64,000 bases of DNA from Candidatus Helarchaeota archaeon (GCA_019058315.1 JAHPZH010000002.1:768001-832000), one strand, 5' to 3'. Positions 15,727 through 37,340 are shown, counted from the stretch's first letter. A program made the numbers and translations. Notes: generated from the sequence alone by a model not told the origin.

Positions 15727-15831
15727 GTAGTACCTTCTTTTTTTTTTAACATTTGAGAAGTTCTTAAAATTTTATTAAAATATTTATTTAAAAGACTTTT
15801 TTTAAATCTTACACTTAATTTATTAATATAG

Positions 15832-15879
15832 TACGAAAAAATATGTATTGTATTAAATTTTATTTACTAAGTTTAAGTA
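15832..15879 (+). promoter_or_regulatory. conserved operator/promoter copy A (TACG-N8-TGTA ... TTTACTAA)
   Basis: Aligns with copies at 20091 and 37292 and with the reverse copy at 16842. Confidence 0.7.
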
Positions 15880-15891
15880 TAAGGTCTAATT

Positions 15892-16701
15892 ATGAACGAA
15901 GAATATTTAGATGAATTATTTGGCATCTTACATTCATCAATAAGATTACATATTATTAATTTATTAATAAATGAAAAATCAGAACTCAGATTTAATGAAA
16001 TATCTAAGTTATTAAATATAAATCCATCAACTTTAGAAAACCATTTGAAAAAATTATTATCTCTCGGATTAATAACTCATGAAAATGAAAAATATTATAA
16101 AGCAAACTTAAATTCGGAAATTATATGGTTTCTAATTAATAAATTTCAACAAATAAAAAATAATTCTTATTTTAGCAATCATAGAATTGCCGAATTAAAT
16201 TCGGAGTTATTAAATACTTTCTTGGATCTCAAATTTGAAATATTAAATAATGGTATTTCAATTGCTTCTCAATTCATTGATGATTTTAAGAAATCTAGTG
16301 AAATTCTAAAAATAGGGGGGGCAATTGATTTAGAGTTTGAAGAGAATTTCATGAAAATTATTAATCTTAATTTTAAAAATACCAAAATTGAGATTATTCT
16401 TTCCGAAAAAAATGCTAGTAATTTTTTAAGATTAAAAAATGAAAATTTAATCTTTAGAGATGTTCCTAATTCAAAAATTTCTGTATATATTACTACTAAT
16501 CCTAATTTGTATTTAATGATTCTAGCAAATTCAGGATTCCTATTTTTTCCTGATTTAAATTTCAAATTAGATTATGAAAATTGCCTATATATGAAAACAA
16601 ACAATGGAGTTAATTGGCTACTTAAACTTTTTAATTATTTAAAGCAAAAATCGAAATTAATCTCACTGGATATACAACAAGATATCAAGAATAAGATTTG
16701 A
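15892..16701 (+). CDS. winged-helix (ArsR-like) transcriptional regulator with C-terminal effector domain (COG4742/DUF1724-like)
   Basis: IRLHIINLL...RFNEISKLLNINPSTLENHLKKL..LGLI HTH; C-terminal LFFPDLNFKLDY...W..KLFNY. Confidence 0.8.
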   Translation: MNEEYLDELFGILHSSIRLHIINLLINEKSELRFNEISKLLNINPSTLENHLKKLLSLGLITHENEKYYKANLNSEIIWFLINKFQQIKNNSYFSNHRIAELNSELLNTFLDLKFEILNNGISIASQFIDDFKKSSEILKIGGAIDLEFEENFMKIINLNFKNTKIEIILSEKNASNFLRLKNENLIFRDVPNSKISVYITTNPNLYLMILANSGFLFFPDLNFKLDYENCLYMKTNNGVNWLLKLFNYLKQKSKLISLDIQQDIKNKI

Positions 16702-16793
16702 AAGCACTCAATAAATTGTGTTTATCTTTGGTCCATATCCACGAAAAAATCTTCAAATCTTAGTATTTTAAGATAGAAGTAAATTAGCAAATA

Positions 16794-16843
16794 TTTCTTA
16801 ACCTTTAAACAATATTTTCAATAAAATACTAATTTTTTCGTAC
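16794..16843 (-). promoter_or_regulatory. conserved operator copy D, inverted (TACG-AAAAAATT-AGTA-TTTTATT)
   Basis: Reverse complement of 16827-16842 plus flank matches the shared motif. Confidence 0.6.
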
Positions 16844-16969
16844 AGCATGAATTAAATAAAAATATACTCTGATTTTAAAAATTAAATTTAAATTTGATAA
16901 TTTTGTATGTTTTTAACAATTAAAAAGGGAAGTAATCTTCCCAAATGGGAAAAACAGAGTTAGAAAAAA

Positions 16970-18280
16970 ATGTTTGAGGAAATTAATTTCTTGATTGTAG
17001 GAATAATAATTGTTGGGATTATTGTATCCTTTCTATTCATAATTTTCATGGTATCTCGATATAGGAAATTCAAAACAAATGAGTATGTAATTCATCTTAG
17101 AAATGGAAAAGTCAAGAGTGCTGGTCTAGGTGGAAATATATGGTTATTACCTTTAATTGATGATTACATTATTATACCAACGACAAGCATCCAAACAAAT
17201 TTAGAAGCACATGAACAAGTACTTTCAAAAGAATATCAAAGTATTAGTATAACAGGTATGCTAATTTGGAAAGTCATAAATGCCGAAAAAGCATTCTCAG
17301 CTGTTTCTTGGGACCCTAGAAATGAACATTACGTAGAAAAGATTCTTAAAAATGCAGCAGAGGCGATTATCAGGACTACATGCGCCAATATGGAAATAGA
17401 AAAGATTATTCGAGAGCGTTCAGATATTATAAAGAATATTAGCAAAGAATTACACGAAATTACTTCGGATTGGGGAGTTATAATCGAATCTATCGAAATT
17501 ATAGAAGTAAATATTTTAAACCCAGAATTAAAGAAAAACATGGAAGCAATAAAGCAAGCAGAACAATCAAGAAGTGCAAGAATCGCCACTGCCAATTCTG
17601 AAATGGAATCTCGTTTAAGAGAACTTGAGATGAAAAATGAAGTTGGTATTCGGGATCAACTTGTGGAAAAAGAAATTGAATTAAAGAAAAAAGATAAAGA
17701 GATAGCAATCGCACAAAAAGAACTAGAGAGAAAAACAATTGAAGCTGATGGAGAAAGAAAGAAGATAGTTATTGAAGCTGAGGCTCAAGCTGAACAAATA
17801 AAAAAGAAGTTAATTGCTAAAGCAGAAGGTGAGGCTGAAGGTATAAGAAGACAAATGCTTGCTCAAGCTGAGGGAATTAAAAAACAAGTGGAAGCAGTAA
17901 GTAGTTCAGATGAAAGGTTTGCAATAGCTCAATTAATAGACAGATTACCTAAAATATTTGAAAATATTAAACCTGAGAAGATGTTTATCATGGGAAATGG
18001 TGATGAATCGTTTAATGCAATATCTAGATCAATTTTACCTTTCTTAATATTACTTCCAGAATATAGAAGAATTTTTGAGAATGGACAATTGCATACAGTT
18101 GATAAACATGCCGAGACTTTGCCAATAACTCCCGAAGAACTAAAAAATAAACTTGCTGAAACTCTACCAATAATTTCTGAGGAATTAAAAAATAAACATG
18201 CCGAATCTTTCCCAATAACTCCCGAGGAACTAAAAAATAAACATACTCAAAATTCCAAATACATCCTGAGGAATAAATAA
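16970..18280 (+). CDS. flotillin-like SPFH/Band 7 protein
   Basis: N-terminal TM, SPFH domain, EAEA/AEGEAEG coiled-coil tail, C-terminal 15-aa repeats. Confidence 0.9.
   Translation: MFEEINFLIVGIIIVGIIVSFLFIIFMVSRYRKFKTNEYVIHLRNGKVKSAGLGGNIWLLPLIDDYIIIPTTSIQTNLEAHEQVLSKEYQSISITGMLIWKVINAEKAFSAVSWDPRNEHYVEKILKNAAEAIIRTTCANMEIEKIIRERSDIIKNISKELHEITSDWGVIIESIEIIEVNILNPELKKNMEAIKQAEQSRSARIATANSEMESRLRELEMKNEVGIRDQLVEKEIELKKKDKEIAIAQKELERKTIEADGERKKIVIEAEAQAEQIKKKLIAKAEGEAEGIRRQMLAQAEGIKKQVEAVSSSDERFAIAQLIDRLPKIFENIKPEKMFIMGNGDESFNAISRSILPFLILLPEYRRIFENGQLHTVDKHAETLPITPEELKNKLAETLPIISEELKNKHAESFPITPEELKNKHTQNSKYILRNK
18102..18245 (+). repeat. 45-bp coding tandem repeat, 3 copies plus a partial one (KHAETLPITPEELKN)
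   Basis: Units start at 18102, 18147 and 18192. Confidence 0.9.
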
Positions 18281-18383
18281 TCTGATATTTATCAGTAAGG
18301 ATTAATCACTAAACTTTCCCAATAAAAAGAATATTTTAATTTAAATAAAAAATGGAATAAAAAATATTAAAGGGTATTGATAA

Positions 18384-19241
18384 ATGGACTTATATAATAT
18401 TTTCTTTAATATTTGCCTAGGTTTATTTATTGGTGGGGTAATAATGTCGATTATTTCGATAATTCTTGCAGGGACAACAATTCAACATCAAAGTTTGGGA
18501 CATATTGATCATACAGCTTATATTGACCATATTGACCACATCGACCATCTTGACCACACCCTTGCTCATATAGAACATGTCGACCATGCTGACCATACCC
18601 CTACTCATATAGAACATGTCGACCATGCTGATTTTATCAATCAAACAGAGCATATAGGACATTTGGGCAAGGAACATTTACATAAAATTAATCATTTCAA
18701 AGATTCAGGGAATATTAATGGCCATAAAGATATAACGCCCGCTCCTTTTATGCTTTTATTTTCGGAATTTTTATTGGTATTTGGAATTTCTGGCATTTTA
18801 TATTATTTTATTATAATTGAATGGCCGAAATGGATAATATTTTTCATCACACCATTAACCAGTTTTCTGTTTGTAGAGCTCGTTTCAATGTTGTGGAAAA
18901 GAATTGCAATAAATAGACATTATGAAACCATTTCTAGTAAAAATATAATTGGAACGATTGGAGAAGTAGTTTTAGATGTGGATAGTAAAGGTGGTATTAT
19001 CAAGATTAACTCTAACACGCCAATGGAATTTGAAAAAATACATTCGAAACCATTACACCCAGAGAAGCAGTTTTCTAAAGGTCAGCACGTATTTATTTAT
19101 GCAAAAAAGGATGGATATTTTCTAATAGACAATAAAATACCCCTAGAGGAAGAGATAGAATCTTGTCCTAATTGTGGAGCAATAATAGTGGAGGAGAATG
19201 AGTGTTATTGCGTATATTGTGGAGCAAAATTATTACAATAA
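18384..19241 (+). CDS. NfeD/YqiJ-like membrane partner of flotillin with His-rich loop and C-terminal zinc ribbon
   Basis: 3 TM, (HID/HIE/HVD)n repeats, IIGTIGEVV..GGIIKI OB-fold pattern, CPNCG...CVYCG. Confidence 0.75.
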   Translation: MDLYNIFFNICLGLFIGGVIMSIISIILAGTTIQHQSLGHIDHTAYIDHIDHIDHLDHTLAHIEHVDHADHTPTHIEHVDHADFINQTEHIGHLGKEHLHKINHFKDSGNINGHKDITPAPFMLLFSEFLLVFGISGILYYFIIIEWPKWIIFFITPLTSFLFVELVSMLWKRIAINRHYETISSKNIIGTIGEVVLDVDSKGGIIKINSNTPMEFEKIHSKPLHPEKQFSKGQHVFIYAKKDGYFLIDNKIPLEEEIESCPNCGAIIVEENECYCVYCGAKLLQ

Positions 19242-19285
19242 AAAAAATCGGTCAAAAAGAGTAAGACTAAATATACTCTATTTTT

Positions 19286-19960
19286 TTAATTATTCTGTAT
19301 AACCCTTTTTTTACGTCCAATTCCAGGTAAGAATTGCCCGGTACTTGCAGCGTACTCGTCATATAAAGAACCGAAGATATTAAACATCAAATTTTCCTCA
19401 GCAATTGCTTGAAACGGTAAGGCAATCAGAAAGATTACAGCGTAGAAAACTATTAACCAAATTCCTGTGGCGAGGAAAAAAAAGAGAAATTCGAATGCTG
19501 CTTCTATGTAGCCTGGGTGACGTACATAATGATAAGGACCCCCCGTTGCTAGAATATATTTACCCGAAAGCGGTTTATAGAGTCTTGTAAAATTTACATT
19601 ATAAAAAAAGACACTTATGGACCAACCTAAGCATAGAAAAAGTCCAATGATACCAGTCCAATTGACCCAATTGGGCAAGTCAATAGCAAAAATAGAATTT
19701 ATTAAATCCCAAAAGTCAAATATACATGAGATGATCACGATAATCTCCAATATTGCATTGATAATTGGCGGTATTGCGACCCCTAATTGTGTCCATCGAT
19801 TTCCTGGACTTTGTTCAGCATTTTTTAATCCAACTCTATCAATGAGGACTGAGCCGTTAGGTAGTTTATTACTTCGGGTTAGTCTTATGATTCCTAAAAC
19901 AATGAGAAAAGCAATTCCACTACCAAGAAAACAGATTAATATAGTTAATTTATCAAGCAT
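19286..19960 (-). CDS. isoprenylcysteine carboxyl methyltransferase (ICMT/PEMT) family membrane protein
   Basis: GGPYHYVRHPGY, AEE..M...FG..Y..Y. Confidence 0.85.
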   Translation of the reverse strand: MLDKLTILICFLGSGIAFLIVLGIIRLTRSNKLPNGSVLIDRVGLKNAEQSPGNRWTQLGVAIPPIINAILEIIVIISCIFDFWDLINSIFAIDLPNWVNWTGIIGLFLCLGWSISVFFYNVNFTRLYKPLSGKYILATGGPYHYVRHPGYIEAAFEFLFFFLATGIWLIVFYAVIFLIALPFQAIAEENLMFNIFGSLYDEYAASTGQFLPGIGRKKRVIQNN

Positions 19961-20090
19961 GATATCGTTTTATTATTTTATGTATCTCATATTAAACTGG
20001 ATATATAATTAATTTATTGGATTTTAATATAAGAATTTATTAGTTTATTGGATAATTATTTTGCTAATCTTATCTATCTAATAAGTATTG

Positions 20091-20139
20091 TACGAAAATA
20101 AGCGTATTTTATTAAAATTTATTCACTAATTTTTATAAA
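20091..20139 (+). promoter_or_regulatory. conserved operator/promoter copy B (perfect TACG-N8-CGTA, TATA box TTTATAAA at 20132)
   Basis: TACGAAAATAAGCGTATTTTATTAAAATTTATTCACTAATTTTTATAAA. Confidence 0.75.
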
Positions 20140-20224
20140 TTAATTTTCTTCACTAGAAATCAAATAAAATTTTGAGAAATTAAATTTTAATCTAAAAATA
20201 TTTTTAAAATTTGGTGGAATAATT

Positions 20225-20947
20225 ATGTCACAAGATTTCGACGAGGTTATTCTCCGGTCATATCCAAAAATCATATTCTTCTGGCCTACGGCAATAGTTT
20301 CGGCAATACTCGGATTATTTGCTCAATTTATACCCATTATGAATGTATCTCCCTTAGACTTTTTATACCAAACTTCACTTAGTAATGGGTGGACAATAGA
20401 TTGGAGAGTCATATTAGGTTTAATTTGGTTCGGTAGCTTTACGGCTAATCTCTTTGTCATTTCATTTGATTACAGTAGTTCAAAAGTTATTGCTTTAATC
20501 TTATGTGTTATAGTTGGTGTTCTTGTAATAATATTATTATTAATATATTTTCCAAATCTCGGTCAAAAATTACCACGATTTTCGATAAATGAATTAGGTC
20601 TCACGATGTCTTTTGAGTTTTACTATACAATAGCTGGACTTTTCGGATTTACATTTTTAATTATTTGGATAGGAAAACATTGGGACTACTATAAAATTAC
20701 TTCCCAAGATATTATTCATAAGAACGGAATTCTTGGAGATGAGGAAAGGTTTCCTGCTCCCAATATTCATATCCATAAAAGAATCACTGATGTTTTTGAA
20801 TTTCTGTTACTTAAATCCGGAGAACTTACTATTATACCCGCTCAAAGAACTACAATAATTCACTTACCTAATGTATTAAATATTAATAAAAAAGAGAAAG
20901 AGATTCAAGAAGTCTTAAAAACGCTTGAAGTCGAAGTAGAGAAATGA
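20225..20947 (+). CDS. membrane protein with bPH_2-like domain (paralogue of 2448-3167)
   Basis: Near-identical N- and C-termini to the 2448 protein. Confidence 0.6.
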   Translation: MSQDFDEVILRSYPKIIFFWPTAIVSAILGLFAQFIPIMNVSPLDFLYQTSLSNGWTIDWRVILGLIWFGSFTANLFVISFDYSSSKVIALILCVIVGVLVIILLLIYFPNLGQKLPRFSINELGLTMSFEFYYTIAGLFGFTFLIIWIGKHWDYYKITSQDIIHKNGILGDEERFPAPNIHIHKRITDVFEFLLLKSGELTIIPAQRTTIIHLPNVLNINKKEKEIQEVLKTLEVEVEK

Positions 20948-21033
20948 TAATGGTTTATTTGGAGTGAATGACTGTCTCAATTATAAAATTGATTAATTTG
21001 GTGAATCTATATAATATTTAATCTGGTGTTTAA

Positions 21034-21393
21034 ATGAAAACTGACCTATTTTCAAATGTGATGGAGTTCCTAAAAAACGAAAAAATCAAGATTATAAAAA
21101 GGAAGATCTCCGAATCAGAATTTCTGTTTGAAAACCCAGACTCATTGATTACTGTTAAATTTGTAATGAACAATATAAACCACGAGATTTTGTATGATAT
21201 CTACTCAACTAAATATTATATACATTTAAAAGAGGAGACAATAAAGGACGTGGAAAAATTGGAGTCTATCGCAGAAGATTATGGTAATTGGAATTTTGCG
21301 AAAGCTGTAGAGGATATATGGCTAATTATTGACGAAATCAAGTATTGGGCTTATAATAATGATTTTGGAGTTAAAGAAAAGGAATTAATTTAG
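21034..21393 (+). CDS. hypothetical protein
   Basis: 119-aa ORF, GGTG SD, co-oriented with its neighbours. Confidence 0.65.
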   Translation: MKTDLFSNVMEFLKNEKIKIIKRKISESEFLFENPDSLITVKFVMNNINHEILYDIYSTKYYIHLKEETIKDVEKLESIAEDYGNWNFAKAVEDIWLIIDEIKYWAYNNDFGVKEKELI

Positions 21394-21452
21394 CTTTTAA
21401 ATTTTCTATTTCTTATAAAATATTTCCGAACAAACAGGAATGATCTTATTAA

Positions 21453-22271
21453 ATGTATGAAACTGGAATCGTTTTAGGAATTATAATTAGCATATTATAT
21501 CCTCTATCTATTGCTTTAGTATTAAAAAAATTCAAATTCGACGATAAACGTTGGAAATATCTATTAATTGCCTTTATAATAGGTGCTCTTTTCTTTTTTA
21601 TTGGGTTAATTCGTAAAATCTATGTTTACTTTATTCCTTTGCCCACACTCCTATGGATAGATTTAGTTGTTACTGGATTTATTGAGGAGTTAATGAAATT
21701 ACTCGTTATATTAATAATCATTAAAAAATTACCTGCAGATCTTAAAGAAGCTCCTTATTATGGTTTACTTATTGGTCTAGGATTTGGTGCAGGAGAAATG
21801 TTATATATTCTATTACCTCTCCCCACTTTAGCACCGGCTTACGAGAACGCGATAATAGCAAATTTAATATTTGCAACATTAACAACATCTCCACTCTCTG
21901 ATTTGTTTTGGTACTACGTTATTGTTTACACAAATTATTGGCTCCAAATTACTTCTGTGGTAAATATATTTGGTATACCTCTCATTAATTTGTACGAGAG
22001 ATTAATTATAGTTCCATTTCATGCTACTACTGCAATATTAATTGGTCAAGGATTTAAAGCAGAAAGTCCCAGATTTAAGCTATTTGGAATAGAGTTTACA
22101 CCTAAAATCAATTATTTCTTAATAGCCATTGGATTGCATATTGTAATCGATCTTTTTGCAGTATTAAATTATTTATTAGTAATAACAACTGAAATTATGG
22201 AAATAATCATTACTCCAATAGCGTTATCAACTTTCATTGTTGTTATATGGCTATTTATTCTAAAGGATTAA
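21453..22271 (+). CDS. PrsW/YhfC family glutamic-type intramembrane protease
   Basis: GFIEELMK, GLGFGAGE, ER...FHA, LHIVID motifs. Confidence 0.8.
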   Translation: MYETGIVLGIIISILYPLSIALVLKKFKFDDKRWKYLLIAFIIGALFFFIGLIRKIYVYFIPLPTLLWIDLVVTGFIEELMKLLVILIIIKKLPADLKEAPYYGLLIGLGFGAGEMLYILLPLPTLAPAYENAIIANLIFATLTTSPLSDLFWYYVIVYTNYWLQITSVVNIFGIPLINLYERLIIVPFHATTAILIGQGFKAESPRFKLFGIEFTPKINYFLIAIGLHIVIDLFAVLNYLLVITTEIMEIIITPIALSTFIVVIWLFILKD

Positions 22272-22281
22272 AAATATAAAG

Positions 22282-22932
22282 TCATTGCATAGAATTTTTA
22301 AGTTTTTCAATAATTTTGAACTGTTTAACATCTTCAATATCTCGACCAATCACAAAAGAACCGACTATCATTATATAGCATCCAAATAGAATATCAGAGA
22401 AAGCTACTCCATGAATGACGAATATAAAACCAGGAACTATAAAACAAATACCAAAGAAACCTTCATGAAAATGATAACCTAAAACGTCGATCTCTATAAT
22501 CTGTTTGCCCAATCTATCAGTAATATGTGGTAAAACTAATAAAATCCAAAGAACGAACGCAACTGATAGAACATCTGCTACAAATAATATAATTGGGGGA
22601 ACTATTTCGACATGATAAAACCCAATAAAAGTAAAGATTGGAATTATAATTAAAAAAAGGAGAAAGGTAAATGCTTTTTTATGTCCTTTTAACTGATGTT
22701 CGGGTTCTTTATTTTTTGAGAAAATTCCACTAATACCAACGAAAAAAATTCCAATTAGAATAATGAAAATACAAAGTGTTCGAGTTAATGGAAGGGAATT
22801 TCTTAGTTCTGTTACGTAAAGATAGTTTAATATTAAAATTGCGGCATGAATAAATCCCAAAATTAATCCAATGCTTATTGTGAAAATGCCTAATTTTATA
22901 ATTCTCCTCATTTTCAAATCATTTAAGAACAT
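22282..22932 (-). CDS. multi-pass membrane protein with HFHE motif
   Basis: About 6 hydrophobic helices; GYHFHEG. Confidence 0.6.
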   Translation of the reverse strand: MFLNDLKMRRIIKLGIFTISIGLILGFIHAAILILNYLYVTELRNSLPLTRTLCIFIILIGIFFVGISGIFSKNKEPEHQLKGHKKAFTFLLFLIIIPIFTFIGFYHVEIVPPIILFVADVLSVAFVLWILLVLPHITDRLGKQIIEIDVLGYHFHEGFFGICFIVPGFIFVIHGVAFSDILFGCYIMIVGSFVIGRDIEDVKQFKIIEKLKNSMQ

Positions 22933-22985
22933 TAACTGAAATCATGGTGGAAATTAAGATAAAATTAAAAAAAATCTAAAAAAAG

Positions 22986-25439
22986 TTAAGATTTTTCTTT
23001 TCTTCTTTTTATTAATTTGTATAGACCGACTTTTAAAAGGTCTGTTAAGACAAAAAGTACCAGAGCATATATCCAGACAAACAAAGCAAGAATCCAACCA
23101 ATTGGTGAAACAATAAAACCATATACTGTGATGAAGGTTGCTATTGTTTGGGTAATTACAACTGCAAAGAATAGAATTTTACTTGGTTTAATAGACCAAA
23201 AAGGACCTCGTGTACGTGCTACAAATAGAGTCAAATGTCCAGCAACGGAAAGTTTTAAATATATAAAGGATTGAATCGTCTCCTTGGGAAGGTGTAATAT
23301 GACCTGAGCAATATAGAAAATACCAAAAGAAGATCCAACACCTATTATTCCTAGAAAGGTTGATACCATCAGAACCATCCTCATATTCCATCTTTCTGGT
23401 TCATTTGAATAAGTAACATTATCATAGGCAATAGTCATTATTGGTGCATCATTAAGAAGTGCTAAGAGAACTATCATAATGGCTGTTACGGGATAAAAAT
23501 TAAACACTATTATTGAAACAGTCATAAAGAGTAAAACCCGAATAGTTTCAGCGATTCGATAAAGTGAATAATTATTCATGCGTTGAAATATTTTACGGCT
23601 TTCTTTAATGGAATCAATAATAACTGATAGCCCCGGTCTTGTGAGAACAATATCTGCTGCTGATTTAGCAGCATCAGTAGCATTTGCAACTGCTATTCCT
23701 GCGTCAGCTTTCTTCAAAGCTGGGGCATCATTAACTCCATCCCCAGTCATGCCAACAATATGTCCTGCATTTTGGAGTAAATCGACAATATGAAATTTAT
23801 GTTCAGGAAAAACTTGAGCAAAACCATTAGCTGTTTCAACAATTCGTTGAGCTTCATTGTCTGGTTTATCTATGAATGAAGAAATTGGAACCATATTGGT
23901 CTCTAAATCTACTTGGAGAGCAACCTCCTTGGCGATAGCTATATGATCACCAGTAACCATTTTGACATCAACACCCATTGATTTTGCTGTATCGATAGTT
24001 TCCTTTGAATCTTCACGAGGAGGATCATATAGTGGAATAAGTCCGATATATTCCCAATTTCCTTGTGAATCAGTTTTAGCCAAACCTAATGTTCGATATC
24101 CTTTATGTGCATAAGTGTTAATTATTTCATTAATCTTAGTACTAATTGCTTCATCGTTAGCCAGAAGTGACAGAATAACTTGAGGTGCTCCCTTGGAAAC
24201 GTTGAAAATTTTTCCAGTGTTATCCTCTATTTTAGCTTCTGTACGTTTTGCGACTGGATCAAAGGGTTTAAATGCAGTGACTTTATAAGGTTTGAGAAGT
24301 TTTTCAGAGGATTGTAGTGTTTTAAATTTTGTAATAATTGCATTATCAATAGGGTCTTGATCTTCTTCTCTGGATGCCAAAGTGGCAAGTAATAAAACAT
24401 CTTCATCTGTATAACTGTCAAAATGAGTCAGTTCTGCCACGCTTAACTCGTTTTTTGTTATTGTGCCTGTTTTATCTGAGCATAAAACATCCATTCCTGC
24501 CATTTCTTCAATAGCAACAAGCCTGCTGACAATGGCTTCCTTTTTAGCTAAAGATGTCGCACCGATCGCCATAGTTACAGATAGAACTGCCGGTAGAGCA
24601 ACTGGAATAGCTGCGACAATCAGAACCAGTGCAAATTGAAGAGTTTCTGCTATACTTTCCTGACGAAACATTGCTACAAAAAATATAAGAATAACCAAAA
24701 AAACAGCAACAATGATTAAAAAATTTCCAATTTTCATGACTGCTTTTTGGAAATGACTTCTCTTTTCAGCTTCTTCTATCATTTTAGTAGTTTTACCGAA
24801 ATATGTATTCATTCCTGTTGTAACAACAATAGCATCTACCTCACCTTGCCGAATAATAGAACTGGAATAGGATATATCCTCAACATGTTTTTCTACAGGT
24901 AAGGATTCACCTGTCAATGCAGATTCATCTGTAAGCAAATAATCTCCACATATTATTTTAGAATCCGCAGGGACAATGTCTCCAAGGCGTAATCGTAGCA
25001 TATCACCTGGAACAAGATCTCTGGCCTCTATATCTTGCCATTCACCATCACGTAAGACTCTAGCCCTCAGTGCCAATTTCTCTTTTAATAATTCAATTGC
25101 ATTATCCGCTTTATGTTCCTCCCAGAAACGAACTACTGCATTTAAAAGCAGTAAAATAATTATTATAATGAAATCATCCCAATGATCAATAATTGCTGAT
25201 AAGATGGCTGCAATTTCAATCATCCAAGGAATGGGTCCCCAAAAATTTTTCAAAAATTTGATAAAGGGATTTTTTTTCTTTTCAGAGATTTCATTAGGAC
25301 CGTATTTTTGAAGACGATTACTCGCTTCTAAATTAGATATTCCTTTATCTGTTGTAGAAAGTTTATTTAACAATTCATCAATCTGAATATTTTTGGCTTG
25401 TTCAGTAGTTATTATATTTTCTTGCATAACTAAATTCAT
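22986..25439 (-). CDS. plasma-membrane proton-efflux P-type ATPase (type IIIA)
   Basis: WGPIPWMIE, TGES, IPVALPAV, CSDKTGT, GMTGDGVNDAPALKKAD. Confidence 0.95.
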   Translation of the reverse strand: MNLVMQENIITTEQAKNIQIDELLNKLSTTDKGISNLEASNRLQKYGPNEISEKKKNPFIKFLKNFWGPIPWMIEIAAILSAIIDHWDDFIIIIILLLLNAVVRFWEEHKADNAIELLKEKLALRARVLRDGEWQDIEARDLVPGDMLRLRLGDIVPADSKIICGDYLLTDESALTGESLPVEKHVEDISYSSSIIRQGEVDAIVVTTGMNTYFGKTTKMIEEAEKRSHFQKAVMKIGNFLIIVAVFLVILIFFVAMFRQESIAETLQFALVLIVAAIPVALPAVLSVTMAIGATSLAKKEAIVSRLVAIEEMAGMDVLCSDKTGTITKNELSVAELTHFDSYTDEDVLLLATLASREEDQDPIDNAIITKFKTLQSSEKLLKPYKVTAFKPFDPVAKRTEAKIEDNTGKIFNVSKGAPQVILSLLANDEAISTKINEIINTYAHKGYRTLGLAKTDSQGNWEYIGLIPLYDPPREDSKETIDTAKSMGVDVKMVTGDHIAIAKEVALQVDLETNMVPISSFIDKPDNEAQRIVETANGFAQVFPEHKFHIVDLLQNAGHIVGMTGDGVNDAPALKKADAGIAVANATDAAKSAADIVLTRPGLSVIIDSIKESRKIFQRMNNYSLYRIAETIRVLLFMTVSIIVFNFYPVTAIMIVLLALLNDAPIMTIAYDNVTYSNEPERWNMRMVLMVSTFLGIIGVGSSFGIFYIAQVILHLPKETIQSFIYLKLSVAGHLTLFVARTRGPFWSIKPSKILFFAVVITQTIATFITVYGFIVSPIGWILALFVWIYALVLFVLTDLLKVGLYKLIKRRKEKS

Positions 25440-27172: not shown

Positions 27173-27239
27173 TTTTTTACAAACTTTTAAAATAATAATT
27201 AAAGAAATTTATAAGTTCTCTTAAAAGTGTCTAAATTAA

Positions 27240-28412: not shown

Positions 28413-28479
28413 AAAAATCTCTCCTCAAATTTTATAAATATTTATATATTCTGAATCTCATTAAATTAATTCTCATAGG

Positions 28480-28656: not shown

Positions 28657-28910
28657 TTTATCATTCCAACACAGTATTTTGTAAAAATAAAATGAAAAAA
28701 ATTAATGAAAACAAAATATAAAAAAAATTTAGTATAATTATACTTACGAAAATTCTTATAAAAAGAATAATGTAATTTGAATAATCTAAAAGTTGAATTA
28801 TGTTTTATTAGGTCATACGGATTTCTATACAAATATTAGAGGTTTTTTATAATTTATATTTATCAAATAGTATGAAAAATCCATTCAAAATTAATTTTTA
28901 GTGAAATAAC

Positions 28911-29828: not shown

Positions 29829-29897
29829 TAGAGTGTTATTAGTAAAATTAATTGTTCATTTTCCTATTTATATGAAAAAATTTTCCTAGAAAAAATA

Positions 29898-30404
29898 CTA
29901 AATTATCTTTTTTCTTAATCTATTCAGTTCTTTAATAAAAATATCCATTTCTTCTTCTGTTAGGGGCTTAGGATCAAAATGTTCTCCTTTATTAGGAATA
30001 TATGGGGGGTTTCCCCAGTCGGAATCACTTTTATAACGGGGATATACATTCCAATGAATATGATGGTCCCAATTATCATAATATGCTAAATTAAATAGAT
30101 CTGGTTTAATTGCCTTATCTAATGCTCTCATTATTTTTATAGTATCATTCATGAATGAGTCAACAGTTTTTTCATGTAATTTTAAAAGATCTTCCTCATG
30201 AGTTTTTATCATTATAACTAAATGACCTTTATGGTGAAGTCTGCCAAATACAACTACAATATGATCATCCTCAAACAAAATTTCTTTCTCTTTCATAATT
30301 ATTTGACAAAAATTACATTCTGGATGGTTAGCTGGATTATTATTTTCATGTTTTAAATATTTGAATCGTTTAATTTCTATTTTTTTCCCTTTTCTGTTTA
30401 CCAA
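29898..30404 (-). CDS. HIT family protein
   Basis: CNFC and HHIHWNVYPRY. Confidence 0.85.
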   Translation of the reverse strand: MVNRKGKKIEIKRFKYLKHENNNPANHPECNFCQIIMKEKEILFEDDHIVVVFGRLHHKGHLVIMIKTHEEDLLKLHEKTVDSFMNDTIKIMRALDKAIKPDLFNLAYYDNWDHHIHWNVYPRYKSDSDWGNPPYIPNKGEHFDPKPLTEEEMDIFIKELNRLRKKII

Positions 30405-30426
30405 AAAAACACCCTAAATAATCATT

Positions 30427-30462
30427 CTTATTTTAAAGCAACTTATGCTTATTTTAAAGCAA
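30427..30462. repeat. 15-bp direct repeat CTTATTTTAAAGCAA x2, 21-bp period
   Basis: Exact copies at 30427-30441 and 30448-30462, upstream of the HIT gene. Confidence 0.8.
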
Positions 30463-30792
30463 TTTCTGTATATAAATTATATTAATGAAAAATCTATTTT
30501 ATCTTTAGAATAAGTTTAGTTTTTTAAAAGCCAAAAATCGAGTTTTCAAAGAAAATTAAAATAATTAATTTAATTAGCTTTTAAAATCGGTTTATTAAGT
30601 AAAAATTTCATAGAATTATATAATAATACATTATGAATTTCATCATATTTTTTCAACAACAGTTTTTTTCTTCTCATCTAATTTGGTAAAGAATTTCAAT
30701 TTGATAAAATTATTTTTATCAGAATTTCTTTGGGAATAAAAAAATATGTTAAAATATTACTTAATTCATAAGGAAAATAATGAGGTATATGT

Positions 30793-32373
30793 ATGAATGA
30801 AGATCCCTATGATATTGTGGTAATTGGAGCAGGTCCTGGTGGATACCCTGCTGCAATTCGCTCGGCACAATATAATGCAAAAGTTGCTTTAATTGAAAAA
30901 GACAAAGTGGGGGGTACGTGTTTAAATAGAGGGTGTATCCCAAGTAAAGTCCTTTATAGTGCTGCAAAACTAATAGACGATATTGAAGAGAAGACAAATA
31001 TCTTTGGAATCGAAATTACTGGAGAAATTAAACCAAATTTTGAAAAAGCTATTGAGAGAAAAAATCTAGTTGTAAAACAGCTAATAGAAGGTATTGAAGT
31101 TTTAATTCAACAAAGAAAAATTGATTTATTTTATGGTTATGGTAGTATTATTGGTGGGAATGTAAAGCAAGGATTTGATGTTAAAATAGAAGGTAAGGAT
31201 TCAAAACAAATAAAAGCAAGACGCATTATTTTAGCTACTGGCTCATCTCCTGGACTATTCCCTACCTTTAATATAGATCATGAACGAATTTTAACAAGTG
31301 ACGATATTTTAGAGCCAAATTTTAAAACTGTTCCAAAAACTATCTTAATAATTGGCGGTGGTGTCATCGGTTGTGAATTTGCATTCGTTTTTAGGAAATT
31401 CGGTTCAAAAGTAATTATGTTGGAAGCGCTACCAACTATTCTTTCTAAAGAAGAACCTTTGATTGTTCGGGAACTTAAGAAGAAATTCAAAACAATGGGT
31501 ATTGAAATTTATGAAAATCAAAAGGTTTTAAAAATTGAAAATACAGGTTTAGGAGTAAGAGCAACTACAATCAAAGGTAATGTTCCTATTGATCAAATTG
31601 ATTCAATAGAAAAAAGTATTTTTAAAGCCGATCTTTGTCTGATTTCAATTGGAAGGGCTTATGCTTCTAAGGGTCTTGGATTGGAAAATACAAAGGCCGA
31701 AATCAACCATGGGAAAATAATAGTAAATCCAAAAACATTAGAAACTTCAGAAAAAGGAATTTATGCTATTGGTGATGTTACTGGTGGCATAATGTTAGCC
31801 CATGTAGCAAGTTATGAAGGAGATGTTGCTGTTTTTAATGCTCTTACTAGTATAGGAGGGTTTGATACTTATGCTGTGGAGGCAGATTACTCGGTTGTCC
31901 CAGCTTCTATTTTCACGGCTTACGAAATCGGCTCTGTAGGATTTAAAACACAATATTTCAAAGATAGAAATATTAAAATTAGGACTGGTCGATTTGGTTA
32001 CGCAGCACTTGGGAAAGCTAAATGTATGAGTGAAGAAGAGGGATTCTTAATGATAAATACAGATGAACAAACAGAGGAGATACTAGGAGCATCTTGTATT
32101 GGTGTTTCAGCGCCCGAATTAATTTCAGAAATAGCACTTGCGATGAAAAATGGATTAACAATACTTGATATAACAAATACAATCCATAGTCATCCAACAG
32201 TATCAGAAATGGTAAAGGAAGCAGCGGCGGATGTTTATGGACTAGCAATACATCGAATAAAACCCCGTATTAAACAAAAAATTGACTTGAAAGAGGATAT
32301 GATCCAAAAATTCGCTAAGAGTGAAAAATTGAAAAAACATGGTCTTATTACATTGGAAATACCTGTTATATAA
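30793..32373 (+). CDS. lpdA: dihydrolipoyl dehydrogenase
   Basis: GAGPGGY, GGTCLNRGCIPSK, HSHPTVSE. Confidence 0.93.
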   Translation: MNEDPYDIVVIGAGPGGYPAAIRSAQYNAKVALIEKDKVGGTCLNRGCIPSKVLYSAAKLIDDIEEKTNIFGIEITGEIKPNFEKAIERKNLVVKQLIEGIEVLIQQRKIDLFYGYGSIIGGNVKQGFDVKIEGKDSKQIKARRIILATGSSPGLFPTFNIDHERILTSDDILEPNFKTVPKTILIIGGGVIGCEFAFVFRKFGSKVIMLEALPTILSKEEPLIVRELKKKFKTMGIEIYENQKVLKIENTGLGVRATTIKGNVPIDQIDSIEKSIFKADLCLISIGRAYASKGLGLENTKAEINHGKIIVNPKTLETSEKGIYAIGDVTGGIMLAHVASYEGDVAVFNALTSIGGFDTYAVEADYSVVPASIFTAYEIGSVGFKTQYFKDRNIKIRTGRFGYAALGKAKCMSEEEGFLMINTDEQTEEILGASCIGVSAPELISEIALAMKNGLTILDITNTIHSHPTVSEMVKEAAADVYGLAIHRIKPRIKQKIDLKEDMIQKFAKSEKLKKHGLITLEIPVI

Positions 32374-32407
32374 TGAATATTTCTATAATTACCAAGGACT
32401 GCCATAA

Positions 32408-33031
32408 TTATCTTAATTTTGGATATAACATTGGCACGTTTTTTTTATACTCCTCATAATCTTTACCAAATTCTTTAATTAATTCTCTCTCCTCCTTCCA
32501 AGCTGTTAAATAATTATATAAAATGATTAGAGGAGTAGAGAGTAAAGAAAACAATGATGATAATAAAATAGAAATGCCCAGATGGGATAAGATAGCACCA
32601 AAATACTGAGGATGTCTTATAAATGAATATATACCTGTCGTAACTACCTTTTCTGCCTTATGGGTTTCTGATACCTCTAAGGTGGTTTCTTTAACACCAA
32701 CTATTCCAAACCAAGCACCCAATAAGATTATTGGAATTGAAATAATAAGATGAACTAAAGGAATAGAATAATTTATGAATGGTATTATTATTATCAAATC
32801 TTGAAAAATAGGAACAGTAAATTTTGGTTGGGGTGAAATCCAAATACCAAATAAAAAAATAAAAAAACCCCATCCCGAAGCCATGCCAAGAATTTTAGTA
32901 ATTTTATCTCCCTTCTCTAAACCATATTTTTTTTGAAATTTTAAATGCTCAACTGATAAAAAGTGAATTGGTAATATTAAGAATATTCCAATAAGAAAAA
33001 TAAAAAACCAAATCCATTCCAATACTTTCAC
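32408..33031 (-). CDS. ICMT/PEMT family membrane methyltransferase
   Basis: VTTGIYSFIRHPQY, EERELIKEFG..Y..Y. Confidence 0.85.
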   Translation of the reverse strand: MKVLEWIWFFIFLIGIFLILPIHFLSVEHLKFQKKYGLEKGDKITKILGMASGWGFFIFLFGIWISPQPKFTVPIFQDLIIIIPFINYSIPLVHLIISIPIILLGAWFGIVGVKETTLEVSETHKAEKVVTTGIYSFIRHPQYFGAILSHLGISILLSSLFSLLSTPLIILYNYLTAWKEERELIKEFGKDYEEYKKNVPMLYPKLR

Positions 33032-33185
33032 CCACTAAAAACACAATTAATGAAGGAAAATTTATCTTTATTGGTTTAATTCTTCAAAAAATTATGCTTC
33101 TTTTATAGTTACATATTCAGTTGTTTTTTTTTTGTTTGAAATTGTTTAATATGTTAAATATTAATACGGTGCATTTATTACAGAA

Positions 33186-33347
33186 TTATGATATTTTTTG
33201 GAATCTATCCTTACCTACACCACATACCGGACATAACCAGTCATTGGGAAGATCCTCAAAGGGTGTTCCAAGGGCTATACCTTGAGTATCATCGCCAATC
33301 TCTGGATCATAAATATAACCACATTCTATACATTCATACTTATCCAT
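33186..33347 (-). CDS. rub: rubredoxin, 53 aa (absent from the ORF track)
   Basis: [19 protein letters not shown]...[20 protein letters not shown]; GGTGA SD. Confidence 0.95.
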
Positions 33348-33465
33348 AATTATTCACCAATTTTTTCAAATCGATGATCTATAAATATGAATATTCGATT
33401 AAAGTAATATCGATCGTTTTTTTTTAATTTTTACTTAAAATATAGAGCTTAAAGAGGAGCTTACT

Positions 33466-35127
33466 ATGATTAAAGATATTTTTACGTTTATAGTCGGAGG
33501 TAAAGCTGGTGAAGGAATCAGAAAAGCTGGTGCGGTTGCAGGAAAGATTTTTTCAAAGAAAAGACGTTATATTTTTATTATGGATGATTATCCGAGTCTT
33601 ATCAGAGGAGGTCACAATTTCTCCGTTGTCAGTACCTCTGTTAGGAAAGTTTCAAGCCATTATATGAAAGCTGACTTAATAGTTGCTCTAGATAAAAGAA
33701 GCTATGATAATCATATTAAAAATCTTTCAGACCAAGGTATTATTGTATATAATTCTGATGATGAATTAAAAGATGTTAAAGGCGTTGGTGTACCGTTAAA
33801 ATCCAACGCAAAAAAATATCCATTCAAAGATTTGATTCTAGGTGTCGGTGCAGTTGCAATCCTTGCAGCTGCGATAGGTATTGATAAAAATGAATTAGGA
33901 AAAATAATTAAAGATCAATATCCCACTGGTATTGAGGATAATATAGAATATGCTATTACAATATATGATATAGTTCATCCTGAAATTGGAGGGAAATATC
34001 AACTCGAAGAAGGAAATCAAGAATTACCATTTTTTACTGGAAATGAGTTGATTGCCCTTGGTGCGGCAGCAGCAGGATTAGATGTTTATTTTGCTTACCC
34101 TATGACTCCTTCAACATCCATTCTTCATTATTTAGCTTCAAACGATAGGGATCTTGGTATAACTGTTGTACAACCCGAAAATGAAATAGCAGTTATTAAC
34201 ATGGCAATAGGCTCTACTTTTACTGGAGCAAGAACAATGATTGCGAGTAGTGGTGGTGGTTTTGCTCTTATGCAAGAAGCTTTATCTCTTGCAGGCATGG
34301 TTGAATCACCGATTTTATGCATTATTTCATCTAGACCTGGACCATCAACAGGTGTTCCTACTTATACTGAACAAGCTGATCTATTTTTTGCTCTTAATCA
34401 AGGTCATGGAGAATTTCCAAAAATAGTTGCATCACCAGGTTCTGTTGAAGAAACATTTTATCTTACTGCTGAATTACTATATTTGGCTTGGCAGTTTCAA
34501 ACACCGGCATTATTACTTACTGAAAAACACATGTCCGAAAGTAGAATGTCTGTAAAAATCGATCCGGAAAAAGTCAAGTGGGCTGAACCCTTAATGCATA
34601 AAGAAGGAGAATATAAAAGATATATTGACACTAATTCAGGAGTTTCACCTTTATTATTCCCACTGACGAAGAATATAAATAAATGGAATAGTTATGAACA
34701 TGATGAACTTGGGTTTACAACAGAAAATGCTGCCATGATTTCTAAAATGCATATAAAACGAAGAAAAAAGTTGGATAGTATTAAAAAGTTTATGGAAAAA
34801 ATTCATACAGTTAATATATTTGGTGAAAAAGGCCCTGTTATCTTTACTTACGGATCTACTACAATGAGTGTATTAGAAGCTTGTAAAGTGGGTGATATTG
34901 AAGCTCAAGTGGTTCAACCAATCTATTTAAGACCATTTCCAATATGGGAACTTGAAAAATTTAAAAATGAACGTACAATATGTGTAGAACTTAATTCATT
35001 TGGGCAACTGGCTACTATTCTTAAAAATGAGATTGGTATTAAACCCATTGAAGTAATTAAGAAATTCGATGGAAGACCTTTTGATCCGATTGAGTTATCA
35101 AAAAGAATAAAGGAGGTAGTCAGATAA
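33466..35127 (+). CDS. korA: 2-oxoacid:ferredoxin oxidoreductase alpha subunit (gamma-alpha fusion)
   Basis: GGKAGEGI, IRGGH, AYPMTPST, RPGPSTGVPT. Confidence 0.92.
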   Translation: MIKDIFTFIVGGKAGEGIRKAGAVAGKIFSKKRRYIFIMDDYPSLIRGGHNFSVVSTSVRKVSSHYMKADLIVALDKRSYDNHIKNLSDQGIIVYNSDDELKDVKGVGVPLKSNAKKYPFKDLILGVGAVAILAAAIGIDKNELGKIIKDQYPTGIEDNIEYAITIYDIVHPEIGGKYQLEEGNQELPFFTGNELIALGAAAAGLDVYFAYPMTPSTSILHYLASNDRDLGITVVQPENEIAVINMAIGSTFTGARTMIASSGGGFALMQEALSLAGMVESPILCIISSRPGPSTGVPTYTEQADLFFALNQGHGEFPKIVASPGSVEETFYLTAELLYLAWQFQTPALLLTEKHMSESRMSVKIDPEKVKWAEPLMHKEGEYKRYIDTNSGVSPLLFPLTKNINKWNSYEHDELGFTTENAAMISKMHIKRRKKLDSIKKFMEKIHTVNIFGEKGPVIFTYGSTTMSVLEACKVGDIEAQVVQPIYLRPFPIWELEKFKNERTICVELNSFGQLATILKNEIGIKPIEVIKKFDGRPFDPIELSKRIKEVVR

Positions 35128-35963
35128 TGGAAAGTTTAGGAACTTATGTGGAAAATACTTGGTGTCCAGGTTGTGGAAACTTTGGGATTCTTAATGCTTT
35201 TAAAAAAGCAGTTATAGCTCTAGAAAACAAGGGAATATCAAAAGAAAAGATCATAATTTCAGCCGGAATTGGATGTCACGCTAAAATATTTGATTATTTA
35301 AATTTAAGTGGACTATATTCTATTCATGGTCGGTCTATGGCGACAATTCAGGGAATAAAACTTGCGAATCCGGATCTTAAAGTTGTTGCTTTTGCTGGTG
35401 ATGGAGATGCTTTTGGTGAAGGTATAGCACATATGATATTTGCAGCAAAAAGAAATGCTGATATAACTGTTATTGTTCACGATAATGGGCGTTATAGCTT
35501 AACAACAGGACAATATACCCCATTAACTGAAAAAGGGTATAAAGGACCTTCAACACCTAGAGGTACAGTAGAGGATCCTCTTAACCCTTTATCGCTCCTC
35601 ATAGAAGCTGGTGCGACTTTTGTGGCCAGAGGATATTCGGGAAAAATACAACATCTTACTGATTTAATAACTCAAGCAATAGAGCATGAAGGATTTTCGT
35701 TTATTAATGTACTTCAACCATGTATTACGTACAATAATACGTATAAGAAATATAATAAACTAGTTGAGATATTAGATGAAACTCCTGCCACTATAGAGGA
35801 AGCTATTGCAATTTCTAAAAGAAAAGATACATTACCAATTGGAATTATATACAAAACTAAAAAGACATCATTTCATAAAAGATTATACGGGGATTATAAT
35901 CCTGTTTTAAATCGTATGTCCCGAGAGGTTAAGTTAAAAACAATACTAAAGTTACTAAAATAA
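35127..35963 (+). CDS. korB: 2-oxoacid:ferredoxin oxidoreductase beta subunit
   Basis: WCPGCG, GIGC, GDGD TPP-binding motif, LQPC. Confidence 0.92.
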   Translation: MESLGTYVENTWCPGCGNFGILNAFKKAVIALENKGISKEKIIISAGIGCHAKIFDYLNLSGLYSIHGRSMATIQGIKLANPDLKVVAFAGDGDAFGEGIAHMIFAAKRNADITVIVHDNGRYSLTTGQYTPLTEKGYKGPSTPRGTVEDPLNPLSLLIEAGATFVARGYSGKIQHLTDLITQAIEHEGFSFINVLQPCITYNNTYKKYNKLVEILDETPATIEEAIAISKRKDTLPIGIIYKTKKTSFHKRLYGDYNPVLNRMSREVKLKTILKLLK

Positions 35964-36029
35964 GTATTTTCAAATCAAAATTTATTATTTTTTTATTATT
36001 TTGTTCTATAAAAATTACTCTTTTATAAT

Positions 36030-37094
36030 CTAGAGCCATTTCTTCTTTTTAAAATATATAAGCATTGAAATTGCTATAATTAATAACAGAATCAATATCA
36101 TGGGATAGCCTAAATCCCAGTTAAGTTCCGGCATATTAATAAAATTCATCCCATAAAGGCTTGTTATAAAAGTTAAAGGGATAAATATCGTTGCTATAAT
36201 AGTTAAAACCTTCATAATCTCGTTCATTCTGTTGCTTACACTAGAAAGATAAATATCAAGCATATTTGATAGCATATCTCGATAAATCTCTATTGTATCT
36301 ACAATTTGAATAATATGGTCATAAATATCTCTGTAATAGATTTCTGTATGTTCATGAATTAAAGGTGATTCTCTCCTTAATAAACGATTTATAATTTCTC
36401 TTAATGGCCAAATTGATTTTCTTAAGGTAATAAAATTATTCTTCAAATTATAGATTTCATTTAATGTTTTAGTAGTTGGCTTTTCTATCAACTCAACTTC
36501 TAAAATTTCTATTCTTTCTCCGAGTTTTTCCAATTTTTCAAAATAATCATCTATTATTATATCTAATAAAGAGTAGACAAGATAATCAGATTTCATCTTT
36601 CTAATTTGGCCCATTGCAGCTTGAATCCTCTCTGCAATAGGTATGAAAATTTCACTTTCTTTTTCTTTAAATGAAATTACTAAATTCGATCCAAAAATTA
36701 TACTAATTTGCTCTGTACTAAGTTCATTGGTGTTTTTCTCAAATTCTATCAGTTTTAAAATTATACAGATATAATTATCGAATAACTCAATTTTAGGTCG
36801 TTGGTTTACATTTAATATATCTTCTAGAACTAGTGGATGGATTTTATAAAATGAGCCGATTTTAGCAATTATTCCTAATTGTTGAAAGCCATCGATATTA
36901 ATCCAAGAAATTGATTTTTCATCTATAATAGTTGAATAGTCTTCTGGTGATTTTATTTCTTCTTCTAGAATTTTTTGTTCATTATATTTGATAAGATTGA
37001 TTTTTGTTGGTACTTCTATTCTTTCACCCGTATATTCCAAAGTACCTGGAAGAGAACTTGATTTTTTTTTTCTTCTTTTAAAAATATGGGACAT
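36030..37094 (-). CDS. corA: magnesium/cobalt transporter CorA
   Basis: YGMNF..MPEL signature, QRPKIE. Confidence 0.95.
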   Translation of the reverse strand: MSHIFKRRKKKSSSLPGTLEYTGERIEVPTKINLIKYNEQKILEEEIKSPEDYSTIIDEKSISWINIDGFQQLGIIAKIGSFYKIHPLVLEDILNVNQRPKIELFDNYICIILKLIEFEKNTNELSTEQISIIFGSNLVISFKEKESEIFIPIAERIQAAMGQIRKMKSDYLVYSLLDIIIDDYFEKLEKLGERIEILEVELIEKPTTKTLNEIYNLKNNFITLRKSIWPLREIINRLLRRESPLIHEHTEIYYRDIYDHIIQIVDTIEIYRDMLSNMLDIYLSSVSNRMNEIMKVLTIIATIFIPLTFITSLYGMNFINMPELNWDLGYPMILILLLIIAISMLIYFKKKKWL

Positions 37095-37291
37095 AGTTTA
37101 ACAGCCCTCATTATTTTATAATTTAAAGTTATAACATTATTTATTTTTTAAAATAAAATTATTAAATTTGTATAAAGTAGTTATCAGAAGTTTTTAATCT
37201 GTTCTAAGTATGGATAGCTACCTAATGTTTATTCTTTTAATGGCTAATATTAATTCCCTTCTTTAATATTTTTATCATTTAATCAGTATTA

Positions 37292-37340
37292 TACGAAAAA
37301 AAAGGTATTTTATCAAAATATATTCACTAATTCTTATAAA
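37292..37340 (+). promoter_or_regulatory. conserved operator/promoter copy C (TACG-N8-GGTA, TATA box CTTATAAA at 37333)
   Basis: TACGAAAAAAAAGGTATTTTATCAAAATATATTCACTAATTCTTATAAA. Confidence 0.75.

Follow-up and report, generated by a model that had tools for sequence, protein, structure and literature searches.

A conserved palindromic site and a neighbouring winged-helix protein as candidate operator and regulator of a small regulon in a Helarchaeota archaeon

Does a short sequence that recurs between the genes of an Asgard archaeon serve as an operator, and if so, for which protein? The question is raised by a stretch of 64,000 nucleotides from Candidatus Helarchaeota archaeon (C5:768001-832000; referred to here as the window, with positions counted from its first letter), which belongs to an assembly of 5,794,606 bases in 12 contigs with a GC content of roughly 30%. 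An earlier reading of this DNA, the original prediction, had described four copies of an operator-like element (A to D) and had pointed to a winged helix-turn-helix (wHTH) protein encoded next to the first of them as the autoregulated factor. Our analysis makes it probable, with good confidence, that A to D are operators for a homodimer of this protein, the candidate regulator encoded at 15892-16701 on the plus strand, which would bind the dyad TAC-N10-GTA.

The core of the element, TACGAAAA-N5-GTATT-N-TAT, was found at 15832 (+), 16842 (-), 20091 (+) and 37292 (+), in agreement with the coordinates and strands originally given, and all four copies are intergenic. A search of the window with the pattern TACGAAAANNNNNGTATTNTAT, allowing up to two mismatches, returned four matches with 0 mismatches each, whereas 0.28 were expected from shuffled sequences and none of 100 shuffles reached four. 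Over the whole 5,794,606 bases, the exact core occurs four times, at A to D only. When the genome was scanned with a 41-nt position weight matrix, A to D scored 38-49 bits and the next best position 18, a gap inflated by the fact that the matrix was built from A to D. The relaxed core TACGAAA-N6-GTA gave 18 genomic matches, 14 of them inside open reading frames (ORFs) of at least 100 aa and without the extension, and the sole four intergenic matches were again A to D, which bears out the intergenic placement that had been proposed. Every copy lies within 21.5 kb of the regulator gene.

The 16-bp core of site A (TACG-N8-TGTA; 15832-15847, +) has a conserved extension to about 15872 and stands 60 nt before the regulator ATG and about 106-121 nt from the start of the divergent atpF gene. 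Site D (16827-16842, -) has the inverted orientation, its TACG end being directed towards a flotillin-like gene whose ATG is 128 nt away. Site B (TACG-N8-CGTA; 20091-20106, +), the only fully palindromic copy, separates a PEMT/ICMT-like gene on the minus strand (131 nt away) from the gene starting at 20225, and site C (TACG-N8-GGTA; 37292-37307, +) is located upstream of a stomatin-like operon. The four copies keep the left arm TACGAAAA perfectly, but of the right arm they retain only GTAT, after which comes TTTAT. The heptamer AGTATTR that had been noticed before B and C is present there as AGTATTG and AGTATTA, respectively.

Evidence that ties the site to the regulator gene came from its relatives. 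The comparison covered 161 genomes of the class, among which the window genome is the sole member of its genus. Homologues at E ≤1e-15 were detected in 12 of these genomes, the window genome included; a scan of genome contigs added metagenome-assembled genomes named 'Promethearchaeota' to the set, and a scan of metagenome contigs for relatives of the regulator found none. In other genomes of the class Lokiarchaeia, a near-perfect palindrome, rTACGAAA-N2-TTTCGTAy, is present in the intergenic region upstream of the homologue (29-36% identity) at 11 of 13 distinct loci from three families, counted with up to three mismatches and mostly with 0-1. Its usual form is ATACGAAAAATTTCGTAT, and GTACGAAAAAAATCGTAC is found in the closed 6.0-Mb genome G046. 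The perfect palindrome is unique genome-wide in G021, G063 and G081; G028 and G046 contain one other exact match to the 16-mer each, that of G028 inside an ORF. A control pattern with the spacing off by one base gave no palindromic site in five relatives, not even upstream of the G021 regulator, and a one-mismatch scan of five relatives gave many matches, fewer than its reversed-pattern control, and was uninformative for extending the regulons of these relatives. At all 13 loci the regulator gene is head-to-head with a PEMT/ICMT-like gene.

Two further features of these loci are recorded here. The homologue in G028 (locus L005; G028:C186, 1489-1950) is cut short by an in-frame TAA to 153 aa, with the palindrome ATACGAAAAAATTCGTAT and the divergent PEMT-like gene intact; the gene may have become a pseudogene recently, or the assembly may be at fault. 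Four loci (L002, L074, L076 and L084) share a conserved word, TTTTCGAAT or TTTTTGAA, on the PEMT side about 5-11 nt to the left of the palindrome; it holds a further half-site-like element (CGAA/TTCG) that might provide a third contact or represent a second site.

A closer relative, also labelled Helarchaeota in its source, carries a homologue with 72% identity on contig piece L080. Here the element (A') stands 61 nt before the regulator ATG, compared with 60 nt in the window. A and A' thus give the regulator a site of its own at a near-identical offset with no adjacent PEMT gene, so that the operator accompanies both genes, regulator and PEMT, where they are separated. A second element of L080 (C') lies upstream of a series of genes that begins with a methyltransferase and includes PNPOx, ICMT/PEMT and a 394-aa protein, with TTTATATA at +41. 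The PNPOx proteins are 65% identical, and the 386-aa and 394-aa membrane proteins 70% identical, between the C and C' operons, so that C and C' head syntenic operons. The core and the +41 TATA box are kept at C', whereas the sequence between them and the flanks have diverged. A third core match in L080 is placed 152 nt upstream of atpF. The footprint at 11 of 13 loci, together with the conserved position in this relative, supports the proposal that the adjacent wHTH protein is the candidate autoregulated factor.

These data also bear on who binds the site. It might be a genuine operator of another transcription factor, the adjacent regulator being merely one of its targets. In the distant relatives the site is always found between the same two genes, regulator and PEMT-like, and co-occurrence does not assign a binder; the genome (G000) moreover encodes many other winged-helix proteins, 52-60 of them as first-look candidates. 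We consider this unlikely, because the site tracks the regulator gene apart from the PEMT gene at A and A', because nowhere is the protein more conserved than in its presumed recognition helix, which fits the conserved half-site, and because searched genomes that lack the regulator, such as G001 (94% complete, and the one other genome of the family in the comparison), contain no palindromic copy.

The comparison with L080 revealed a further difference. In L080, nothing that corresponds to about 21 kb of the window (~16.7-37.3 kb) stands between the regulator gene and the PNPOx/386-aa genes. This segment (about 16702-37291, against 10787-11218 in L080) contains the flotillin-like operon, the PEMT-like gene, a PrsW-like gene, subunits of a 2-oxoacid:ferredoxin oxidoreductase, CorA and others, and was either inserted or rearranged in the window genome or deleted in L080. 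Site D is about 125 nt inside its left end and site C at its right end. In L080, a short ORF with two CxxC...CxxC zinc-ribbon motifs (10800-11090) is found between the regulator and C', and recalls the tail of the protein encoded at 18384 in the window.

The missing segment, and the inversion of A (+) and D (-) about the regulator gene at a distance of about 1 kb, could be taken to mean that the copies mark the ends of a mobile or recombining cassette, or are what is left of one. Nevertheless, no transposase or integrase is encoded between A and D, no target-site duplications were found, there are no further copies in the genome, and from family to family the site is conserved at the promoters of orthologues, as befits a regulatory site and not the end of an element. 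Such an origin is highly improbable. A recent duplication of a promoter module with no dedicated regulator, in which CGAAAA would be an element like the one recognised by transcription factor B (BRE), the A/T-rich part being a TATA box, has somewhat different arguments on its side: the likeness of A, B and C extends over about 45-75 nt, beyond the need of a 16-bp operator, and all copies are confined to 21.5 kb. Other archaea are known to have BRE elements of CGAAA-like sequence ahead of A/T-rich boxes. A general promoter form would, however, recur, and only four copies exist in 5.8 Mb; D is inverted relative to its downstream gene; the flanks of C' have diverged while its core and +41 TATA box persisted; and the relatives keep a true dyad with both arms conserved (TACGAAA/TTTCGTA), which a directional BRE/TATA would not need. 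We regard this explanation as quite unlikely, and return to operators of the 15892-16701 product.

How the sites are placed relative to promoters was then considered, all spacings being measured from the 16-mer. The TATA boxes that had been proposed for B and C are found at 20132-20139 (TTTATAAA, +) and 37333-37340 (CTTATAAA, +), each a candidate that starts exactly 41 nt after the TACG of its site. B, C and C' thus have a common geometry, with the TATA box 25 nt beyond the site, and for B and C the activator-like arrangement of the original prediction is plausible. It does not extend to site A, which cannot use a +41 TATA because of the conserved ATG at +60. This start codon is backed by an MNE N-terminus that is conserved across homologues, and a Shine-Dalgarno-like AAGGT precedes it at about +50 (GAGGT in L080). 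Shine-Dalgarno leaders are common in the genome, as seen from a peak of G at -12 to -8 upstream of genes, so that transcription at A would start before about +45, and the TATA box would coincide with the right arm or adjoin it, which is also its place in the relatives. Most likely, site A overlaps or adjoins the regulator's own core promoter, which suggests autorepression.

In the relatives, both sides of the palindrome show a regular arrangement. On the PEMT side, a TATA box (TTTATAAW, TTTAAATA or CTTAAATA) is located exactly 44 nt beyond the site at 10 of 11 loci, nine of them recognised by the scan and one, CTTAAATA in L075, read by eye. The 44 nt in between differ in sequence among subgroups of the relatives, so that it is the spacing which is under constraint. 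Towards the regulator, CGTATAAA(A/T) directly continues the right arm at 8 of 11 loci, and a TATA-like box thereby overlaps the operator. In DNA this rich in A/T, the chance of a TATA-like word at one fixed position was estimated at roughly 2-3% (1-2 scan matches per 85 nt). In the window, the TATA-like TTTAAATT (16887-16894, +), candidate promoter of the flotillin-like operon, stands exactly 44 nt beyond site D, and the distance of 128 nt from D to the flotillin-like ATG compares with 87-134 nt from site to PEMT ATG in the relatives. Judged from these distances, site D reproduces the relatives' PEMT-side geometry and is not anomalous despite its inversion. TATA-like boxes are also present on the atpF side, 39 and 41 nt beyond the site in the two genomes (window and L080).

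For a promoter model, only 26 tRNAs were detected in the genome, many of them in arrays. A sigma-70 promoter scan gave no more matches than shuffled sequences, the model being irrelevant to an archaeon. The presumed 5' leader of the flotillin-like gene contains a perfect 6-bp hairpin, GGGAAG-TAAT-CTTCCC (16927-16942); with the run of T that comes after it on the minus strand, it was flagged as terminator-like.

If transcription began further upstream, long 5' leaders could include B and C, and the element might then act as RNA, in the form of a leader structure or a small RNA. This candidate was rejected as scarcely credible: no Rfam family matched within 15000-38500, folding z-scores ranged from -0.7 to +0.6, no better than shuffles, D lies on the strand opposite to the gene it precedes, and the conserved feature in the relatives is a DNA dyad between divergent genes.

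In the candidate regulator itself, a protein of 269 aa, an ArsR-type wHTH and a long helix are combined with a PLD-like domain at the C-terminus, which is weakly similar to DUF1724 (FilR1_middle). HTH_5 (PF01022) matches residues 16-62 with 39.8 bits against a cut-off of 22, and all ten homologues match the same family. Pfam TrmB (PF01978) remained below threshold (17.4 bits against 25.6, E 0.004), and no TrmB C-terminal family was matched. FilR1_middle/DUF1724 (PF08350) scored 17.3 bits (E 0.005; cut-off 27), a weak match which nevertheless extends over positions 6-127 of the 128 in the profile; five of the ten homologues match it at E <0.01, the best at 8.4e-5. ArsR/SmtB chains of the Protein Data Bank (PDB) align weakly and to residues 4-70 only. 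The region of the presumed recognition helix is invariant in the ten homologues (P45, S46, L48, E49, H51, K53 and L55), and this invariance fits the conserved half-site.

An AlphaFold2 model of the regulator reached a predicted local distance difference test score (pLDDT) of 83. Its top Foldseek matches were TrmBL2 (5bpi/5bpd, E 4e-10) and TrmB (3qph, E 3e-6); after these came proteins of the PLD fold, matched by the C-terminal part. Template modelling scores (TM-scores) of the full-length TrmBL2 and TrmB matches were low (0.36-0.38), as would be expected if the relative orientation of the domains differs in the model. A homodimer was predicted with an interface score (ipSAE) of 0.66 against 0.00 for the best control, contacts that agree to at least 89% between runs and a partner pLDDT of at least 84; the predicted interface is symmetric and involves residues 1-29 and 58-112. 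In the calibration, 20 of 30 solved homo-pairs and one of 23 single chains reached the same mark, counts that hold only roughly here, since the model was made from an alignment of our own. The homodimer model may partly reflect likeness to known structures, since TrmB and ArsR dimers have already been solved, and is then perhaps not independent evidence. The length of the protein and the model leave no room for a second C-terminal subdomain beside the C-terminal domain of about 150 aa. This domain would act as a signal sensor.

Among known regulators, the TrmB family is the closest in predicted fold, which combines an N-terminal winged helix, a long dimerising helix and a PLD-like C-terminal domain, with TrmBL2 and TrmB as nearest structures. 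The family members compared were TrmB of P. furiosus/T. litoralis, TrmBL1/Tgr, TrmBL2 and H. salinarum TrmB (VNG1451C). TrmB-family sites of the type TACT-N3-AGTA and TACT-N7-8-GAGTA activate when located upstream of BRE/TATA and repress when downstream, and autoregulation has been reported (PMC4158304). Sites of this kind have the same form as TACG-N8-CGTA here. In contrast, the 269-aa protein lacks a sugar-binding subdomain, and its candidate targets are membrane proteins and methyltransferases instead of sugar metabolism. We have not filed the regulator as TrmB because it failed the Pfam TrmB threshold and the sugar-binding subdomain is absent. It likewise departs from ArsR/SmtB proteins, despite the HTH_5 match above cut-off, by an extra domain of ~150 aa, these proteins usually being single domains of ~100-125 aa in which metals or metalloids are sensed. 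The nearest named proteins that combine an HTH with DUF1724 are FilR1 of Methanosaeta harundinacea and the Msr regulators of Methanosarcina acetivorans; in the window protein, likewise, an ArsR-type wHTH is followed by a domain, here one weakly similar to DUF1724. FilR1 is a positive regulator of its targets and also binds the promoter of its own gene (PMC3991700), and MsrC and MsrX have the HTH + DUF1724 organisation (PMC11784639). FilR1 differs by a receiver domain, which the window protein lacks, and the latter stays below the DUF1724 cut-off. The system would work as a divergent regulator-target pair in the manner of TrmB-family or LysR-style regulators.

Several observations weigh against this assignment of site and regulator. 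Only B is truly palindromic, and the right arms of A, C and D keep GTA(T) alone, which is odd for a symmetric dimer. TATA-like words, on which the promoter assignments rest, are common in DNA of about 30% GC, and upstream of 850 Shine-Dalgarno-led genes genome-wide they showed no sharp position peak. Site D has a second TATA-like word 31 nt beyond it, and from B to the TATA-like word on the PEMT side the distance is 57 nt and not 44. Among the relatives, the L003/L078 and L090 loci are without a full palindrome, L090 keeping one TTCGTAT half-site, and the constant adjacency of regulator and PEMT gene in the distant ones means that the footprint alone names no binder. Finally, the window PEMT-like protein is ~30% identical over ~75 aa to the relatives' proteins, so that it is only a candidate orthologue.

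The genes around the sites were assigned as follows. Site A separates the regulator gene from a divergent A-type ATPase operon, in which atpF aligns from 15711. At the conserved N-terminus of atpF (15700-15730, minus strand) there is no ATG, GTG or TTG; the alignment with the L080 orthologue (62% identity) starts at a TTA codon where L080 has ATG, and an ATA preceded by GAAGGT, five codons upstream of the alignment start, could be the initiation codon. The target of D would be a flotillin-like SPFH/Band 7 protein of 436 aa (16970-18280, +), followed by a 285-aa membrane protein (18384-19241, +) in which His-rich repeats are combined with an OB-like segment at the C-terminus and with a zinc ribbon. 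Of the flotillin-NfeD pair originally named here, the SPFH member stands, while NfeD is only a weak lead (a YqiJ_N match, E 0.024). After its first membrane helix, the 18384 protein has long His-Asp-rich repeats (HIDHIDHIDHLDH..., with HIEHVDHADH twice), which suggest metal binding, and it ends in the zinc ribbon, which is of the CxxC...CxxC type.

Site B faces three co-oriented genes (20225-22271, +) that encode a 240-aa membrane protein, a 119-aa protein of no assigned family and a 272-aa PrsW-like protease. The original prediction correctly placed B before the 20225 gene but overlooked the divergent gene for a PEMT/ICMT-like membrane methyltransferase (19286-19960, minus strand), the partner that is conserved with the regulator family; its description of the 20225 product as a PH-domain membrane protein was not confirmed, as no Pfam match was obtained and only a feature-score lead of 0.81 points to bPH_2. 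Downstream of C, a probable operon with short gaps (37385-40767, +) begins with the expected stomatin-like SPFH gene (37385-38203) and continues with genes for an S-adenosylmethionine-dependent methyltransferase, a PNPOx-like protein and the 386-aa membrane protein. The stomatin-like protein shares 75% identity with one in G021 (L119, C134), a genome that belongs to another family; for the regulators of this pair of genomes the figure is just 31%, a gap that suggests either unusually strong conservation or gene transfer. Conservation of the site did not extend to orthologues of its SPFH targets: when ~500 nt were searched upstream of the stomatin-like orthologues of G021, G046, G063 and G081, no operator turned up, so that SPFH recruitment is confined to the window lineage.

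Taken as a mechanism, the ancestral unit would consist of a regulator gene and a PEMT/ICMT-like methyltransferase gene arranged head-to-head with one operator between them. On one side, the right arm of the operator would run into the regulator's TATA-like CGTATAAA, and binding would result in negative autoregulation by occluding TBP/TFB; on the other, the operator 44 nt upstream of the methyltransferase TATA would activate, as upstream sites of TrmB-family regulators do. In the window lineage, copying of the operator would have supplied four promoters in a stretch of 21.5 kb. The regulator would repress its own gene from site A, which adjoins or overlaps the core promoter given an ATG just 60 nt away. 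Site D would serve the flotillin-like operon with the 44-nt geometry; with the TATA box 25 nt beyond the site, the 20225 operon would be served by B and the stomatin-methyltransferase-PNPOx operon by C. Sites 25 or 44 nt upstream of TATA would go with activation, as they do in characterised TrmB-family regulators and in other archaeal factors (PMC4158304). B may also act on the divergent PEMT-like gene, and A on the divergent A-type ATPase operon. The sequences show the sites themselves, with their uniqueness, conservation and spacing; binding by the 15892 protein, the sign of regulation at each promoter and C-terminal signal sensing are what we infer. Gene content and the PLD-like domain suggest a signal that may be membrane- or lipid-related. 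A more specific version, which we offer as speculative and doubtful, is a sensor of membrane or lipid state whose PLD-like domain binds a lipid-derived or methylation-related ligand and which switches on the lipid-modifying PEMT/ICMT-like enzyme and, in the window lineage, also the SPFH (flotillin/stomatin) scaffolds, the PrsW-like protease and perhaps the ATPase operon.

The membrane-stress regulon of Bacillus subtilis sigma-W is analogous in gene content, through flotillin- and stomatin-like SPFH proteins, a PrsW-like protease and possible NfeD-like and PH-like membrane proteins. The likeness is a functional analogy only, several of the gene identities being weak here, and the system of the window differs in that a winged-helix regulator would act at archaeal TATA promoters in place of an alternative sigma factor.

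Most likely, the locus represents a gene switch of a familiar type, well documented here for a lineage in which hardly any are known. In a limited search of the literature, which is not proof of absence, we found no defined set of transcription factor, operator and targets for Asgard archaea. What is new here, and well supported at the level of sequence, is a putative regulator-operator-regulon set from these archaea with conserved spacings that are directly testable: a concrete conserved 16-bp site, a candidate factor of TrmB-like fold, distances of 25 and 44 nt to TATA and one geometry in which the site overlaps the promoter. It would offer a compact test bed for bacterial-type regulators working on eukaryote-like basal machinery in the lineage closest to eukaryotes. 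One switch would join SPFH membrane-microdomain proteins and PEMT/ICMT-like methyltransferases, families relevant to membrane organisation in the origin of eukaryotes. Since the regulator-PEMT pair and the palindrome are also present in the closed genome G046, experiments would be feasible if that organism is cultivable. If the sensor version were true, an archaeal regulon for membrane homeostasis or envelope stress would rest on a TrmB-like factor instead of a sigma factor, and any cultivated member of the Lokiarchaeia with the regulator-PEMT pair would allow this to be tested.

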